Shown here in pieces: positions 16,369-51,118 of a stretch of 64,000 bases of DNA. The position numbers and the translations under genes are program-made. The notes under the pieces are model-generated. The model was given only the letters and a program-made list of their open reading frames with translations. It was not told the origin of the DNA and did no database searches. The stretch is taken from the NCBI GenBank assembly GCA_951406725.2, contig OX597821.1:61070001-61134000 (forward strand), in the 5' to 3' direction. This DNA comes from Octopus vulgaris (lineage: Eukaryota). Every line of letters begins with the position of its first letter. Within the stretch, counting starts at the first letter, position 1.

Positions 16369-16530
16369 ATTATATATATATTCTCTCCCAATTTCGCAGT
16401 GTGTGTATGTGCATAAATAAATGTATTTACGGTAATGTATCCCATTGCTTAGGTTATAATATTTCATTAATATATGTTTTGATGAACGTCAGATCTGATA
16501 ACAAGATTGCTTTACACCATTCAAGGCCTC

Positions 16531-19500
16531 AGAGATCAAAGAGGGGTGCCGACAGAGATCAAAGGGGGTGCCGACAGAGATCAAAGAGGGGTGCCGACAG
16601 AGGTTAAAAAGGGTGCCGACAGAGATCAAAGTGGGTGCCGACAGAGATCAAAGAGGGGTGCTGACAAAGATCAAAGGGGGTGCCGACAGAGATCAAAGAG
16701 GGGTGTCGACAGAGATCAAAGAGGGGTGCCGACAGATATCAAAGGGGGTGCCGACAGAGATCAAAGAGGGGTGCCGACAGAGATCAAAGAGGGTGCCGAC
16801 AGAGATCAAAGAGGGTGCCGACAGATATCAAAGGGGGTGTACAGAGATCAAAGGGGTGCCGACAGAGATCAAAGAGGGGTGCCGACAGAGATCAAAGAGG
16901 GATGCCGACAGAGATCAAAGAGGGGTGCCGACAGAGATCAAAGAGGGATGCACAGATATCAAAGGGGGTGCCGACAGAGCTCATAGGGAGTGCCGACAGA
17001 GATCAAAGAGGGGTGCCGACAGAGATCAAAGAGGGTGCCGAAAGAGATCAAAGAGGGGTATCGACAGAGATAAAAGAGGGGTACCGACAGAGATCAAAGA
17101 GGGTACCGACAGAGATCAATAGGGGTGCCGACAGAAATCAAAGAGAGGTGCCGACAGAGATCAAAGAGGGGTGCCGACAGAGATCAAAGGGGGTGCCGAC
17201 AGAGACCAAAGAGAATGCCGACAGAGATCAAAGAGGGGTGCCGATAGAGATCAAAAAGGGTGCCGACAGAGACCAAAGGGGGTGCCGAAAGAGATCAAAG
17301 AGGGGTACCGGCAGAGATCAATGGGGGTGCCGACAGAAATCAAAGAGAGGTGCCGACAGAGATCAAAGAGGGGTGCCGACAGAGATCAAAGTGGGTGCCG
17401 ACAGAGACCAAAGAGAGTGCCGACAGAGATCAAAGAGGGGTGCCGACAGAGATCAAAAAGGGTGCCGACAGAGATCAAAGGGGGTGCCGACAGAGATCAA
17501 AGAGGGGTGCTGACAGAGATCAAAGAGGGGTGCCGACAGAGATCAAAGAGGGGTGCTGACAGAGATCAAAGAGGGTACCGACAGAGATCAAAGAGGGGTA
17601 TCGACAGAGATCAATGGGGGTGCCGACAGAAATCAATGAGAGGTGCCGACAGAGATCAAAGAGGGGTGCCGACAGAGATCAATGGGTGTGCCGACAGAGA
17701 TCAAAGAGGGTTGCCGACAGAGATCAATTGGGGTGCCGACAGAAATCAAAGAGAGGTGCCGACAGAGATCAAAGAGGGTACCGACAGAGATCAAAGAGGG
17801 GTACCGACAGAGATCAATGGGGGTGCAGACATAAAGCAATGAGAGGTGCCGACAGAGATCAAAGAGGGGTGTCGACAGAGATCAAAGGGGGTGTCGGCAG
17901 AGACCAAACAGGGTGCTGACAGAGATCAAAGAGGGATACCGACAGAGATAAAAGAGGGTGCCGACAAAGATCAAAGAGGGGTACCGACAGAGATCAAAGG
18001 GGGTGCCGACAGATATCAAAGAGGGGTACCTACAGAGATAAAAGAGGATGCCGACAGAGATCAAAGAGGGGTGCCGAAAGAGATCAAAAAGGGGTGCCGA
18101 CAGAGATCAAAGAGGGATGCCGACAGAAATCAAAGAGGGTGCCGACAGAGATCAATTGGAGTGCCGGCAGAAATCAAAGAGATGTGCCGACAGAGAGCAA
18201 AGGGGTGCCGACAGATATCAAAGGGGGTGCCGACAGAGAACAAAGAGGGTGCCGACAGATATCAAAGAGGGGTGCTGATAGAGATCAAAGGGCGTGCCGC
18301 CAGAGATCAAAGAGGGGTGCCGCCAGAGATCAAAGAGGGGTGCCGACAGGGATCAAAGAGGGGTGCCGACAGAGATCAAAGAGGGGTGCCGACAGAGATC
18401 AAAGGGGGTGCCGACAGAGATCAAAGGGGGTGCCGACAGAGATCAAAGAGGGGTGCCGACAGAGATCAAAGAGGGATGCACAGAGATCAAAGGGAGTGCC
18501 GACAGAGATCAAAGGGGGTGCCGATAGAGATCAAAGAGGCGTGCCGACAGAGATCAAAGAGGGGTGCCGATAGAGATCAAAGAAGGGTGCCGACAAGGAT
18601 CAAAGAGGGTGCCGACAGAGATCAATGGGGTGCTGACAGAGATGAAAGGGGGTGCCAACAGAGATCAAAGAGGGGTGCCGACAGAGATCAAAGGGGGTGC
18701 CGACATAGATCAAAGAGGGGTACCGACAGAGATCAAAGGGTGTGCCGACAGATACCAAAGAGGGGTACTTACAGAGATAAAAGAGGGTGCCGACAGAGAT
18801 CAAAGAGGGGTGCCGACAGAGATCAAAGGGGGTGCCGACAGAGATCAAAGAGGGTGCCGACAGAGATCAAAGATGGTGCCGACAGAAATCAAAGAGGGGT
18901 GCCGACAGAGATCAAAGGGTGTGCCGACAGAGATCAAAGGGGGTGCCGACAGAGACCAAAGAGGGTGCCGACATAGATCAAAGAGGGGTGCCGACAGATA
19001 TCAAAGGGGGTGTTGACAGAGATCAAAGAGGGTGCCGACAGAGATCAAAAAGGGGTGTCAACAGAGATCAAAGGGGTGCCGACAGAGATCAAAGAGGGGT
19101 GCCGACAGAAATCAAAGACGGGTGCCGACAGAGATCAAAGGGGGTGTACAGAGATCAAAGGGGGTGCCGACAGAGATCAAAGAGGGGTACCGACAGAGAT
19201 CAAAGAGGAGTACCGACAGAGATCAAAGAGGGATGCCGACAGAGATCAAAGAGGGGTGTCGACAGAGATCAAAGGGGGATGCACAGAGATCAAAGGGGGT
19301 GCCGACAGAGATCAAAGTGTGTGCCCACTGAGATCAAAGAGGGGTGCCGAAAGAGATCAAAGAGGGGTGCCGATAGAGATCAAAGAAGGGTGCCGACAAG
19401 GATCAAAGAGGGTGCCGACAGAGATCAATGGGGTGCCGACAGAGATCAAAGGGGGGTGCCGACAGAGATCAAAGTGGGGTGCCGACAGAGATCAAAGGGG

Positions 19501-19784
19501 GTTCCGACAGAGATCAAAGAGGGGTGCCGGGAGAGACCAAAGTGTTGCCAAAAGAGGTCAAAGAGGGGTGCCGACAGAGATCAAAGGAGGTACCGACAGA
19601 GATCAAAGGGGATGCCGACATAGTTCAAAGAGGGGTGCCGACAGAGATCAAAGAGGGGTGCCGACAGAGATCAAAGGAGGGTGCCGATAGAGATCAAAGA
19701 GGGGTGTCGAGAGATATCAAAGGGGGTGTCGACAGAGATCAAAGAGTGTGCCGAAAAAGATCCAAGAGGGTGCCGAAAGAGATC
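16531..19784 (+). repeat. Minisatellite, consensus AGAGATCAAAGAGGGGTGCCGAC (23 bp, with frequent 22-bp variants), roughly 145 units
   Basis: Head-to-tail units with no unique spacers and a strongly purine-rich plus strand. Unit count estimated from length. Confidence 0.97.
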
Positions 19785-19898: not shown

Positions 19899-20335
19899 AT
19901 GTGGCGGTCCTATAAAAGACGGTGTTACTGTTGATTAAGCCCAAGGAAAACATCTTTTCCAGCTGGCCATCGACACAGTCTGTGTCCGTATAGCTTTTGC
20001 AAGGGAGGTCATCGCCCCCATCTCCAACTTTACTTGATACTCACAGACCATAGTTTCTGGTTGGTTACCTGTCCTCAGTGTGAGATAATCATTGGCTGTT
20101 GATGAAATCTTTCGCCACACGAAAACTCTATGTATTCTTTAAGCGACACACAGTCGCTTATCTCGTATAGAGAAAAACGATTTATTTTTAATCTCTCAGA
20201 GTGAGGTGTAGAGTAACTGTACCCAATAGTAAAGTTTATTTATCAACAAAATGTGGCGGTCCTATAAAGGGCGATGTTACTGTTGTTTAAGCCCCAGGAA
20301 AGCATCTTCTCCAGCTGGCTATCAACGACACACAG
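19899..20335 (-). mobile_element. Diverged copy of the ~350-bp hammerhead-containing tandem unit (putative non-LTR retrozyme), ~1.25 units
   Basis: ATGTGGCGGTCCTATAAA recurs at 19899 and 20251 (period 352). The reverse complement aligns by eye over the whole unit with 48069-48698. Confidence 0.8.
20035..20091 (-). ncRNA. Type I hammerhead ribozyme (canonical core, decayed stem II)
   Basis: Minus strand UGAU-UAU-CUCACA CUGAGGA CAGGUAACCAACCA GAAAC UAUG GUC UGUGAG-U-AUCA. Stem I is a perfect 6-bp CUCACA/UGUGAG, followed by the CUGANGA and GAAA boxes and a GUC triplet. Confidence 0.8.
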
Positions 20336-27239: not shown

Positions 27240-27411
27240 CAATTTTACCTTTTCTGTGAAAAGGAGCCGTTTATGCATGATTTTGATGTCACATTCGCTG
27301 AAAGCATGAGAAATAACCTGGAAAAGAAAACAAAACCCATGAAACTAAACTCCGTTCCTGGGGAACTCAGTTTCCTAGTGATCCTACGGGTCACGGGTAG
27401 TCCGGTCTAGT
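27240..27411 (+). mobile_element. Helitron-like 3' end (left boundary uncertain)
   Basis: Imperfect GC-rich hairpin CCTACGGGTCACGGGTAG followed within ~10 nt by CTAG|T. Confidence 0.5.
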
Positions 27412-27421
27412 ATATATATAT

Positions 27422-28160
27422 ATCGTTTTCCAGTATGGATGATACTAGGTTTTTATAGTTTTCTATATCCATCAGAACTACAGCACTTCCTTTGTCTGCT
27501 TCTTTAATTGTCGGGTTTTTGTCGGTTTGTAGTTCAATTAGATTTTTCCATTCTAGATTGTTGAGATTCGGATTAATTTTTCGTTTATTGGATGTATAAG
27601 GGAAATTTTGGATATGGTCGCAGAAGTCATCCAGTGTTTTATTCTTACCCTTATGTGGAAGGTAATTACTTCTGTTTTTGACTACTGATTCATCTTCGTT
27701 ATTGTAGTCAGTTACTGCTTCTGCGAGTCGTAGTTTTCTGCAGAATTCCGAAATATTGTCCTTAATATCCTTATGGTTAAATCTTCGTGTGATTGGAGTA
27801 AACTTTAAAACTTTGGCTAGTATAATGATTTTTGTTATAGAGAGAGTTTTCTTTTAATTACTTTGGGTTTCTCCCGTATGTTTTGTTTCAACGTGTGTCC
27901 CTGATTCTCTCCGCTTGGTCTAAAAAATGTTTATTGTAATTTGGTTGGTAGAAGTTATTATTGGTGTTATTATTGTAATTAATTAAATCAATATTATTAT
28001 TACTTATTATACAGGGATTGCTGGGAGGTTAGTGTTACTGCCTGGGTAACTGGTTGCGAGCACGTGTTATAGCTTCTTCGTTGGATTGAATTGTTGGGGT
28101 GCTTAATTATGTTTGGAATGGTGGGGAGCTGGTAGTGCTGTCTGGGTAAATAGGATGAGA
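27422..28160 (-). mobile_element. Penelope-like element fragment (region N-terminal to the RT core)
   Basis: 27422-27850 translates without stops as ...LAKVLKFTP...EFCRKLRLAE...NLNNLEWKNLIELQTDKNPTIKEADKGSAVVLMDIENY. The LxKGLKFxP and IKxADKG..VV.MD motifs are diagnostic of PLE ORFs. Confidence 0.88.
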
Positions 28161-28799: not shown

Positions 28800-29996
28800 G
28801 TAGTTTGTCCGTCGACGCAACGAAGACCATCTAGTCATCCTTGGGTGGGGGTGGGCTTGTTTTGTGAGTCCGCAGAAGGCTAGTGAGGCAAATCTGCGCC
28901 CGAACGCGTCTTTGACAGTGTGGCTCTGTTCTTCCTGGCTTGTCTGCGGTCTTCTGCAGAAGCGATCCTATTGGTCTCGCATGTGTTGGCACCTTTGTGG
29001 ACAGCTGATCGCCACGCTTCTCTGTCTGGAGCAGACTGCTCCCAAGTGTCATGGTCGATGTTGAAAGCTTTCAGTGAGGCTTTCAGAGTGTCCTTAAAGT
29101 GCTTGTGAGCGCTTTCCCTTTTGCAGCTCGTCAAAGAGCAATCTTTTTGGTAATTGATCTTCTGACATGCGAACTACGTGCCCTGCCCAGCGAAGCTGAG
29201 ATTACATCAAGATGGTATGGATGCTGGGCAGTTTTCAGAGGGGTATTGTTTGAAAGTGGTTCAGCTTCCTGTCATGACGCTGGTAGACCGTCCCGGACTC
29301 GCAACCGCAAAGCAGCGTTGTGAGATCAACAGCTTCGTACACCTTGATCTTCTTTCATGATGGTGATCCCTCTCCTGTCCCAGACAGTCTTGCGTAGCCT
29401 GCCGAAGGCAGCGCTTGCCTTGGCGAGTCTGGCGTTGATTTCGTCATCGACGACAACATTTCTAGAGAGTGTGCTGCCAAGGTAGGTGAAAGTGTCCAAC
29501 GGGTTCATTCGCTGCCCGTTGATGGTGATGTTGTGTTAAACGTAGGGCTTGGTTGGAGCTGGTTGATGTAGTACCTCAGTCTTTTTTGTATTGATACTTA
29601 GGCCAAAGTTGTTGCAGGCACCAGAGAACAAGTTAACGCTGTGCTGCATGTTGGACTCAGTGGCAGCATTGAGAGCGCAGTCATCAGCAAACAGGAGGTC
29701 GTTGACGGTGTCTACTGAAACCCTGGTTTTCGCTTTGAGCCTCCCGAGGTTAAAGACTGAATCATCGGACCGGTGCTTGATGCCGATGCCTATATCTGTG
29801 TCCCTGAAAGCATGGCTGAAAACGTAAGGCTGAACAATGTGGGAGCAAGGACACATCCTTGTTTCACTCCGCTGGAGACAGGGAATGAACCAGAGGTCTC
29901 TCCGTTGCCCTGTACCATTGCCAACATGCCATCGTGTAGTTGTCTTACGACGGTAATGAATTTTCTGGGGTATCCATACTTCGTCAAGACTTCCAT
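28800..29996 (-). mobile_element. 5'-truncated RTE-clade (BovB-like) LINE, frameshifted RT and C-terminus
   Basis: ORF pieces KYGYPRKFI, GVKQGCVLAPTLF, DLLFADDCAL, FGLSINTKKTEV, FTYLGSTLS, RLAKASAAFGRL and FKDTLKASLK..W...A.DR..WR. Confidence 0.93.
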
Positions 29997-30249
29997 GTTC
30001 TCGAGTGATCAACTCAGTACCAGTGATACGACGCGAAGTAGTGCTGTAAATCTCCCTTCCCCTCTCTTTGTATATATATATATATACTTATATGTAGATC
30101 TATCTATCTATCTATCTTTGTGTATGCTTGTATATCTTGACTATTCTAGAAGACGATCTGAAGAATAACTATAAGCAATTCTACAGGATCACAGAATTAC
30201 TACTTTTACTACTTTAACCATTGCATTTAATAAGCAAGAGCATGAAATA

Positions 30250-39500: not shown

Positions 39501-40066
39501 TTGGGTTGTCTGGAAAGTTCGTGCCGATTTTTAAAGGAAAGAAAAAGGTCAATAAATACTTTTCATTACATTTTTAATCAACCAAATGTGAAGCATTTTG
39601 TTGCAGAATGCGTTTACATCTTTCCTTTAACTTGAAAATATCCTCTTCCAAGAATTGAGGTGGTTTCATGGCAAAGAATTCATCAAAGTATCTTTTTACG
39701 TCATCCAAGGAATTGAATTTTTTACCATTAAGACTATTCTGCAGAGACCTGAATAAATGGAAATCCGAAGGAGCAATATGTGGTGAATGTGGAGTGTGGG
39801 GTAACACATCCCAGCCGAGCTGCAGCAATTTTTGTCCGGTTCCCAAAGCATCAAGTGCCAAAAATGAACTTTCATATCTACCATTTGAAAGGGTTACAGA
39901 ATTAACACAGTTTATAGGAACATAAACCCTCGTCCACGAAAAGATAGCTTAAACTGTGCTCTAAATGAAGATACAGTCAAATCCTATTTTATGAACTCAA
40001 CCATGTTCTAAAATAAGTTGAAACGTAAGCTACAATAAATCGGCACGAACTTTCCGGATAACGTAA
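39501..40066 (-). mobile_element. Internally deleted mariner transposon
   Basis: TIRs TTGGGTTGTCTGGAAAGTTCGTGCCGATTT / AAATCGGCACGAACTTTCCGGATAACGTAA. The N-terminus MVDMKVHFWHLMLWE is joined out of frame to LGWDVLPHTPHSPHIAPSDFHLFRSLQN. Confidence 0.92.
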
Positions 40067-47304: not shown

Positions 47305-47470
47305 CATCGAGCTGACAGGATCTTTAAACATCTGGTCAAAATTCTCAGCAGCATTTAGTCCGGCTTTAAGTTCAAATTTCACCGAGATTGACTTTGCCAT
47401 CCATTCTTTCGGGGTTGATGTAATTGACCCCTCCCCCTCAATTGGTGGTATTTTCCCAAAATTTGAAACG
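47305..47470 (+). mobile_element. Decayed SINE family C copy
   Basis: GAGCTGACAG...GTTCAAATTTCACCGAGATTGACTTTGCCATCCATTCTTTCGGGGTTGAT. Confidence 0.6.
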
Positions 47471-48085
47471 AAGATATGTAAATTTATATAACACATACAT
47501 ATGTGTATATGTTTATATAAATAATTCACGCTGCTGTAATCTTATGAAAGCTACGCAATTAACAGTGAAGAAATCATTGACTACTATTTTCACTACTTTG
47601 CCAGAGAAAATTCCTGAACCATCCTCTTCAGTTTTGGTGCTAACGACAGAAATTAGTCCTGTAATTATCTATCCGTGAAGAACGGTTTACAATAGAGAAT
47701 TCCAAATCAAAAGCTTTACTCCGAGAAAAAAAATTCTTATTATCATTTCCTGAAACACTAAATACGGGTGTAGTGTAATTTGTATTGGTCTGCTGATGAT
47801 ACCAAAAGTTAATTTAACCATTCTGAGTTTCCCTCTGCAGTATAAGTGCAGTGTGGTCAAATTTATAGTTTACTATTTGTTTTAGGTTGATATATGTAAA
47901 AATAGTAGTTCTGATAAGACTGGACAACAGTTATATAGTGAAAGAAGTGTGAATTAACATATTTGGTATTGTATATTAGCCACTACAAAGGAACAAAATG
48001 TTGACTTAGCGTTAGGAAGGAGAACAAGATATTTTAGAACTTTAACAGCGTTTGGTTTATTGTCACCCCCCTTTCATCGTAATCT

Positions 48086-48146
48086 GGTGATTACCGCCCG
48101 TTGACAAGAGGCAACAACCTCGAAACTGCAGTCCGTGCGTATCACT
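48086..48146 (+). ncRNA. Type I hammerhead ribozyme, U3-A8 core variant
   Basis: GUGAU-UAC-CGCCCG UUGACAA GAGG-CAACAA-CCUC GAAAC-UGCA-GUC CGUGCG-U-AUCAC. Stems I, II and III all pair. Predicted cleavage is after 48133. Confidence 0.88.
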
Positions 48147-48435
48147 TAGGCTTACGAGAAAGGGATGGCCTCCCTTTGCAAATACCATAAGGGCACAGAT
48201 AGTGTGCCTATAGCCAGCTGGAGACGATGGTCTCCTGGGGCTAAAAGCTACAGTACCCCCCTTTGCGGTTAGCCATATTGAGATGGCTATTATACTTTAC
48301 ATTGTCGAGCGGTTATTGTTTACATCTCGTTCAGAGATTTAATAATGCTTGCAGACAGTTTTTTCGAAATCAGTGACGGAAGTTACTAGAAAAACACATA
48401 TATTTGCATACAGGCTTTCCCTTTCATCGTAATCC

Positions 48436-48496
48436 GGTGATTACCGCCCGTTGATAAGAGGCAACAACCTCGAAACTGCAGTCCGTGCGTATCACT
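48436..48496 (+). ncRNA. Type I hammerhead ribozyme, U3-A8 core variant (second copy)
   Basis: Identical to the first except the core reads UUGAUAA, a change at the free N7 position. Predicted cleavage is after 48483. Confidence 0.88.
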
Positions 48497-49617
48497 TAGG
48501 CTTACGAGAAAGGGATGGCCTCCCTTTGCAAATACCATAAGGGCACAGATAGTGTGCCTAAAGCCAGCTGGAGACGATGATCTCCTGGGGCTAAAAGCTA
48601 CAGTAACCCCCCTATGTGGTTAGCCATATTGAGATGGCTATTATACTTTACATTGTCGAGCGGTTACTGTTTACATCTCGTTCAGAGATTTAATAATGAT
48701 TTTTTCTTTGTTTATCTCAAAATACAAGTTAAAAAGGTATACTGATTAACATTCCTCAAATATTTGATTAAGCATTAAGCAACAAATAACTAGAATATCT
48801 ATGTACATCAAATTGGATTAGAATGACTTTCCTTAGCATCTCAATATTTACTGCGTTGATGCCGCCAAAATGACGTTCGTAGTTTAATAAGAAAATACAT
48901 TAATTTTTGTTTAAGATTTCAGTTCAATGTGTGAGTGATTATATTAGTGTATCAAGTGATTGAACGATTTAGTAGGTGGATTAGGAAGATAAAACCAATA
49001 CTTAGTCATTAAGCATCTACAGTTTATATACTGTTGTTATTAAAGAAATCAGTTCTGTTTAGAAGAGAGCAGTATGATAAATTAGATGTGCGTTCATTCT
49101 GACGTCTAGGTCAGGATGCAATTATATTAATATGACATTTACATATATGCAAGTGAAATACGTGTGCAAAGCGAGAGTTCATACAAATAATGAATAATAA
49201 TGTAAACAAAAAGAAGGGTAGACATCTACATACATACATTACACATATACACAAACATATATAGGTTATCACATACATATAGGCTATCATTTATTTATAC
49301 GCACATGTTCTATTTAATATTCACATGCATAATTGCTGTTGTTTATCCCCAAATGAATCATGATTGACCAAACATAGGATGAAATATATTTACACCGTTA
49401 CCATTTATTATATTTCTGAAGGTATCAATGAATACATTATCTCCAAGATAGTGGGGGGGGGGGGGTGATGTGAAGGAGGAAGATTTGTCATCTCTATCTA
49501 ACAGATCAACTAACAATTCTACATGACTTCTACAATCAATATTAATGTCTTTATAAAGACCGGAAAGTTGAAAGATGTATGCACAATCATTTGAATCGGA
49601 ATTCCAGTTATATAAAT

Positions 49618-50887: not shown

Positions 50888-51118
50888 AGGCGGCGAGCTG
50901 GCAGACACGTTAGCGCGCCGGGCGGAATGCTTAGCGGTATTTCGTCTGTCGTTACGTTCTGAGTTCAAATTCCGCCGAGGTCGACTTTGCCTTTCATCCT
51001 TTCGGGGTCGATAAATTAAGTACCAGTTACGCACTGGGGTCGATGTAATCGACTGAATCCGTTTGTCTGTCCTTGTTTGTCCTCTCTATGTTTAGCCCCT
51101 TGTGGGCAATAAAGAAAT
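50888..51118 (+). mobile_element. SINE family C (full length, Meta-domain-like core)
   Basis: AGGCGGCGAGCTGGCAGA...GAGTTCAAATTCC...GACTTTGCCTTTCATCCTTTCGGGGTCGATAAA...AAAGAAATA. Multiple copies occur in the window. Confidence 0.9.

Follow-up and report, generated by a model that had tools for sequence, protein, structure and literature searches.

A tandem hammerhead repeat in the Octopus vulgaris genome as a probable non-LTR retrozyme with PLE-type insertion scars

We consider it probable that the locus at positions 48069-48697 of the window (the whole 64-kb stretch of Octopus vulgaris DNA analyzed here) is a 1.8-unit copy of a non-coding, non-LTR retrozyme family, likely inserted by the reverse transcriptase-endonuclease of a Penelope-like element (PLE). 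The retrozyme identity had been proposed in the initial annotation of the sequence, and it is supported by the tandem unit, a covarying hammerhead, a genome-wide family that includes tandems, and a predicted double-hammerhead fold. The sequence-level hallmarks of a retrozyme were found: a tandem in the 150-450 bp range, a type I hammerhead in each unit, no coding capacity, a GC content below 50%, and a self-paired monomer.

The repeat unit and its hammerheads

The tandem has a period of 350 and extends over 1.8 copies, with an aligned identity of 96.8% between 48069-48418 and 48419-48701. Unit 1 (350 bp, 48069-48418, plus strand) begins inside a C-run at the 5′ truncation point of the insertion. 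Unit 2 (48419-48697, plus strand) is partial and ends at E2, the distal of the two 3′ ends of the family; homology ends after 48697, and the two copies differ at 8 of their 279 shared bases. This bears out the 350-bp unit, the 1.8 copies, and the identity of about 97% that had been reported for the locus. The unit has a GC content of 44.6%. The longest ATG frames on the circularized monomer are 35 aa on the plus strand and 50 aa on the minus strand, hence no frame exceeds 50 aa and the unit is non-coding, as had been stated.

Each copy carries a type I hammerhead on the plus strand. In the first (48095-48139), helix I is formed by 48095-48100 and 48134-48139, the core UUGACAA lies at 48101-48107, helix II at 48108-48121, GAA at 48122-48124, and helix III at 48125-48132; the predicted cut follows C 48133. 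The second (48445-48489) has the core UUGAUAA at 48451-48457 and a predicted cut after C 48483. Both have a six-pair helix I with one C-U mismatch and a four-pair helix II, and helix III is the palindrome ACUGCAGU in both copies (48125-48132 and 48475-48482), so that the description of helix III as short and palindromic holds. Since the cores read UUGACAA and UUGAUAA instead of CUGAnGA, the usual C3-G8 pair is replaced by U3-A8. The earlier claim of a complete type I hammerhead per copy is thus correct for the motif, which is present in both copies, but had overlooked this core variant. The GUC triplets end at 48133 and 48483, exactly 350 nt apart as had been noted, and double cleavage would yield a predicted monomer of 350 nt (48134-48483, plus strand) that may then circularize.

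The Rfam hammerhead models that had been suggested as a check gave a mixed answer. At gathering thresholds there was no match anywhere in the window. When the scan was run by E-value, Hammerhead_HH9 matched copy 2 with 34.6 bits (E 9.5e-7), under its gathering score of 52, and no hammerhead row was returned for copy 1.

Folding gave further indications of structure. The hammerhead regions fold at z-scores of -4.5 and -4.0, and the reverse strand also scores -3.2. The unconstrained minimum-energy fold of 48040-48701 is a double hammerhead in which an eight-pair helix III forms between the copies, at -220.7 kcal/mol vs -210.6 kcal/mol when both monomeric hammerhead folds are enforced. As a prediction, this agrees with the proposal that the palindromic helix III favors dimeric folding; co-transcriptional folding of the dimer could differ. 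The monomer folds better than its shuffles (z -6.2 linear, -5.0 circular), and a long stem in its predicted fold juxtaposes its two ends. Conservation of the monomer fold across subfamilies is modest, with double changes in 8 of 47 pairs, and the long closing stem did not emerge from RNAalifold across subfamilies; L103, which is not a true monomer, was left out of this alignment.

At the locus itself, we found no LTR pair, no inverted arm, and no clear target-site duplication, the best candidate being a 9-mer with one mismatch that lies off the junctions. The flanks are T-rich DNA, not (AT)n. There is no tRNA gene within the 64-kb window. An octamer-like word that precedes copy 2, a possible promoter element, is not conserved in the other subfamilies and was dropped for that reason.

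Elsewhere in the window, a GC-rich, strongly purine-skewed 23-bp minisatellite of about 145 copies occupies 16530-19784. A reverse-transcriptase fragment at 29536-30087 on the minus strand (Pfam RVT_1, E 2.3e-5, below the cut-off) is probably a LINE remnant, and the frame at 39574-39948, also on the minus strand, has no Pfam match and by motif resembles a mariner transposase fragment. Two copies of a dispersed repeat, 84% alike, lie at 47369-47419 and 50962-51012; we take this repeat to be an octopus SINE.

A dispersed family, its covariation, and its insertion scars

In this genome (2.8 Gb, 227 contigs), a protein named from Octopus bimaculoides has a match at 86%, which fits an octopus. We searched the genome with the window unit and obtained 4002 candidates, 40 loci of which were scored. 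The exact intact-core pattern matched 210 times, compared with 0 for a reversed control, and short copies are scattered over more than 20 contigs. At 12 of the 40 scored loci there are two or more tandem hammerheads, and one of these loci has 10, an array of hammerhead-bearing units of about 355 bp each (G000:C4:13620759-13624379; L005, L013) that ends at E1, the proximal 3′ end, in (AT)n. The further tandem copies, one of the checks named in the initial annotation, came out in its favor.

Three subfamilies could be distinguished. Other loci of the window's subfamily are 84-96% identical over long matches. An older subfamily is represented within the window itself by a minus-strand copy at 19915-20135, with a second piece near 20272-20326, which is about 70% identical to the unit and has a canonical C3-G8 core; as a query, this subfamily returned 1745 candidates. 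In the third subfamily (359-364 bp; L130-L149, e.g., L135:1450-1811), copies are 98-100% identical and occur as tandem and inverted arms, and 11 of 40 scored loci are 100% identical over 195 bp. Such identity suggests that the wider family is probably still active. The view of the family as active or recent is therefore right as to recency, but the window's subfamily is not its youngest member (84-96% vs 98-100% in the sister). Units within one locus of this youngest subfamily differ by 0-3 bases (17 pairs), whereas the median between loci is 6. This low divergence within loci fits one template being copied repeatedly, which does not in itself prove a circle.

Covariation was assessed on an alignment of 53 hammerheads, 26 from the window's subfamily and 27 from the older one; 3 of 56 regions with deletions or insertions (L077:1527, L087:1291, and L102:1526) were omitted. 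Pairs were counted over 20 named pairs, excluding the distal stem, where the alignment is out of register. Over these 20 pairs, 90.2% of cells are paired and the covariation score is 0.344, compared with 0.03-0.08 for slid controls. The 3-8 pair is UA in 26 hammerheads, CG in 20, and UG in 3, with UA in all 26 members of the window's subfamily and both CG (20) and UG (3) confined to the 27 older ones. In the youngest subfamily, the core pair is U3-G8 or U3-A8. Changes on both sides are seen as well in helices I and II and in the loop-III palindrome, which swaps between UGCA, CAUG, CGCG, and CUAG. Because the pair-change counts mostly reflect the split between two subfamilies, they represent a handful of events rather than many independent ones. 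An intact core is found in 23 of the 26 copies of the window's subfamily. We found no measured cleavage rate for a U3-A8 hammerhead in the literature searched; the pair itself has been published for a Schistosoma PLE hammerhead (PMC4209133). At window position 48456, contigs of the sequencing runs X11, X14, and X5 have a C as core position 8, accompanied by a change at 48459, which possibly points to a further subfamily whose 3-8 pair is different, or to an inactive form.

The ends of the copies carry the main argument for the mode of insertion. Of the 56 non-junction 3′ ends at the 40 scored loci, 51 map to unit positions 228-238 (E1, 17 ends) or 274-288 (E2, 34 ends), about 47 bases apart, and the 5′ ends are scattered. 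An inverted arm is present at 15 of the 40 loci. The outer ends of these inverted loci comprise one E1 and one E2 in 12 cases, two alike in none, and are unclear in 3. An (AT)n run, as counted by eye, follows 14 of 33 ends. In the window's copy, the PLE-type tail, i.e., the 45-47 bases between E1 (unit 231-237) and E2 (unit 276-283), lies at 48654-48697 on the plus strand, equivalent to about 48303-48349 in unit 1. The family thus combines variable 5′ truncation, partial tandems, an inverted 5′-truncated arm, and a tail at one end only. Insertions of PLEs are described as having 5′ truncation, partial tandems, an inverted upstream copy, and a one-end tail (PMC8557442), and in vitro, the PLE tail corresponds to the interval separating two internal start sites of reverse transcription, with the protein cutting and extending both DNA strands (PMC11167929). 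The 3′-end, tail, and inversion pattern of the retrozyme matches both the insertion features of the former and the two start sites of the latter.

Candidate helpers are present in the same genome. Starting from a decayed N-terminal PLE fragment with GxKF-like and ADKG motifs (27407-27853, minus strand), we identified three families whose intact frames measure 811, 776, and 750 aa. These are about 56% mutually identical and present in many near-identical copies (L061-L071, L115-L124); scoring covered 150 of 3591 and 94 of 18413 candidates. All three carry the linker cysteine motif, which is given for Neptune and Nematis PLEs (PMC8557442), and a clade assignment from this motif is provisional. 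Hammerheads of the U3-A8 or U3-G8 type, in which helix III is palindromic, lie in the terminal repeats of all three families; the one of the 811-aa family emerged from a relaxed scan that did not demand a 3-bp helix II. In the 811- and 750-aa families, moreover, 3′ ends occur at two sites separated by about 40 nt, with (AT)n following. Several copies have frames of 480-495 aa upstream of the main PLE frame.

When the retrozyme unit was compared with the PLE terminal repeats by blastn (44 and 39 loci, partly overlapping), we observed no similarity beyond, at most, two chance hits of 15-25 nt. The helper is therefore deduced from the scars and not from homology. Judged from sequence, the retrozyme appears to be a PLE passenger in its mode of insertion and is not classed as a PLE deletion derivative. 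The U3-A8 pair common to the retrozyme and the PLEs may not reflect functional matching, since the 3-8 pair lies within one half of the double hammerhead and AT-biased mutation could drive both.

These PLE loci also bear on another account, by which the unit would be a terminal repeat (pseudo-LTR) that became detached from an autonomous PLE, one that was not found, and its copies the 5′-truncated insertions of that element. The type I hammerheads with the same U3-A8 core in the PLE terminal repeats would fit such an origin, as would the fraction of PLE candidates scored (150/3591 and 94/18413). Yet copies extended at the 5′ side enter the previous unit (17/30) rather than coding sequence, a period of 350-362 bp is kept in three subfamilies, and the unit is absent from all PLE loci examined. 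We regard this account as improbable and retain that of a separate retrozyme family using PLE machinery.

RNA evidence and the putative circular intermediate

To look at cleavage, we compared contigs from 8 of 24 sequencing runs, taking the RNA nature of runs X1-X15 as a guess. A 203-nt contig of run X9 (depth 12.9) matches 48485-48657 and bears a 27-letter loose end, most of which we take to be the template-switch oligo of full-length cDNA kits. The last two letters of the loose end complete the start of the 3′ cleavage product in a variant with one extra G, and this variant occurs in genomic copies and in four runs. The template-switch end and the completing letters together place the beginning of the cDNA at the first base past the predicted cut site. 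The contig, a single one from one of the eight runs, represents another family member (6 mismatches, 3 gaps), and the cleavage that produced its RNA end could have occurred in the tube during library making. Among the listed loose ends of X16, X11, X14, and X5 there was no second template-switch end. A depth step at the hammerhead in the runs guessed to be RNA was rejected as a cleavage signal because the DNA-like run X16 shows the same step. The flanks of the locus had no contig cover in four runs, with no firm bearing on this locus. The sequence of a circle junction is the same as that of the genomic tandem junction.

The cDNA end at the cut site, albeit from another family member, argues against a satellite that is spread by DNA recombination and whose hammerhead is vestigial and inactive. 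The 10-unit array at one locus, the non-canonical core, and the sub-threshold Rfam score could all be expected of such a satellite. Set against these are the scatter over more than 20 contigs of short copies whose 3′ ends are fixed, whose 5′ ends vary, and which include inversions, the compensatory changes in both core and helices, and an intact core in 23 of 26 subfamily copies, which together make a satellite very improbable. Equally hard to credit is a viroid-like RNA-to-RNA replicator with DNA copies as occasional reverse-transcribed footprints. The size and self-pairing of the unit are viroid-like, and RNA-RNA replication has been raised as a possibility for mussel retrozymes, but no hammerhead core was found on the minus strand and thousands of genomic candidates can explain the RNA. 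Consequently, the label of a viroid-like circRNA retroelement given at first reading applies loosely: the minus strand lacks a core, and the copies are reverse-transcribed with PLE-type scars.

We therefore return to a reverse-transcribed retrozyme and the form of its template. Thirty copies were picked solely by the segment downstream of the cut, two being the window's own units. None of them starts at the cut site, 23 contain the whole core, and 17 enter the previous unit. As no copy begins at the cut, the template would be a circle or an uncut multimer and not a cut linear monomer.

Between these two templates we favor the circular intermediate. In the mechanism we propose, a tandem genomic copy would be transcribed, and the palindromic helix III would let its two hammerheads fold together into a double hammerhead that cleaves the RNA 3′ of 48133 and 48483. 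With its ends held by the long stem, the resulting 350-nt monomer would then be closed into a circle; the enzyme is probably an RtcB-type ligase, which has been shown to act in this way on axolotl and mussel retrozymes in vitro. A PLE protein would then nick AT-rich DNA and begin reverse transcription inside the RNA at E1 or E2, pass the cut and ligation site, and halt at variable points; the window's copy would correspond to an E2-started cDNA of about 630 nt.

Alternatively, the same element and helper could operate with no circle, the insertions arising from uncut linear multimers and the cleavage being incidental or serving another step. Read-through of the cut site is equally compatible with uncut RNA, tandem sources are available (12/40 loci), and an anole PLE uses unprocessed RNA in vitro, its hammerhead being dispensable for insertion (PMC11167929). 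What speaks for a circle instead is the 0-3 differences between units of a locus in the youngest subfamily (17 pairs; median 6 between loci), although homogeneous arrays would do likewise, together with the 10-unit array and the circles demonstrated for coral, mussel, and axolotl retrozymes (PMC7229834). On balance, we find the version without a circle unlikely, if still a serious competitor to the circular intermediate.

A more far-reaching scenario can be offered as a tentative conjecture, which we would sooner doubt than defend. A PLE dimer might simultaneously use two sites, 47 nt apart on one and the same RNA circle made by the ribozyme, to prime the two strands at a single DNA cut, recognizing the circle by shape and not by sequence homology and rolling through the ligated junction. 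The family might then be a long-lived parasite of Neptune-type PLEs in the form of a circular RNA, renewed time and again, with a core that passed from C3-G8 by way of U3-G8 to U3-A8, the form of its helpers.

Comparison with known retrozymes and PLEs

Elements of this kind are already known, and the octopus family is a further non-LTR retrozyme family. Metazoan non-LTR retrozymes have been described from coral, mussel (350-390 bp), and axolotl (330/350 bp) (Cervera and de la Pena 2020, PMC7229834). The octopus family resembles them in its short tandem unit without a coding frame, its GC content below 50%, its highly self-paired monomer, its single type I hammerhead per unit with a 2-bp helix III and a palindromic loop, and the co-existing PLEs. 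It differs from them in the U3-A8 core of 26/26 copies, in its clear PLE tail and inversion scars, and in its cephalopod host, a group unnamed in the main text of that report (the supplement may list some), and here the family is known from its sequence. We found no description of a cephalopod retrozyme in the literature searched, which had most subscription papers outside its coverage.

PLEs were proposed as a "strong candidate" for the retrozyme helper in 2020 (PMC7229834). More recently, vertebrate retrozymes have been presented as non-autonomous PLE derivatives on the evidence of PLE co-occurrence and terminal-repeat homology in 35 genomes, none of a mollusc (Li, Clavereau, Pollet 2026, bioRxiv 10.64898/2026.07.22.740005). 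In Xenopus, according to the same preprint, homology identified a helper for 24 of 57 retrozyme families, and 1 of 9 predicted dimers was cleaved in vitro, so the activity of the octopus copy cannot be assumed. Our conclusion on the helper is the same, and monomers, dimers, and multimers occur in both groups; unlike the vertebrate elements, the octopus unit has no homology to the PLE repeats examined, and the case is built on how the insertions are shaped. Here, a retrozyme family directly displays the tail and the inversion scars of PLEs, where the helper link was previously mostly a proposal.

With canonical PLEs that have a C-terminal endonuclease (Craig et al. 2021, PMC8557442; Frangieh et al. 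2024, PMC11167929), the octopus family shares 5′ truncation, partial tandems, the inverted upstream copy, the tail at one end, and AT-rich or (TA)n targets. It departs from them in having no reading frame and a tail of about 47 nt as against 30-40 nt. The hammerhead of the Cercyon PLE of Schistosoma mansoni has the same compensatory core pair (Cervera and de la Pena 2014, PMC4209133). As described there, the Cercyon hammerhead is minimal and mostly single, whereas that of the octopus is a full type I hammerhead in a tandem retrozyme with C3-G8, U3-G8, and U3-A8 sister forms. In contrast to hammerhead viroids and satellite RNAs, the octopus element lacks a ribozyme core in the minus polarity and has genome-wide DNA copies. 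The family extends retrozymes to the cephalopods and supplies a natural series of 3-8 core pairs, and the intact candidate PLE helpers, along with a near-identical young sister subfamily, make the helper, the start sites, and the form of the template testable in vitro.
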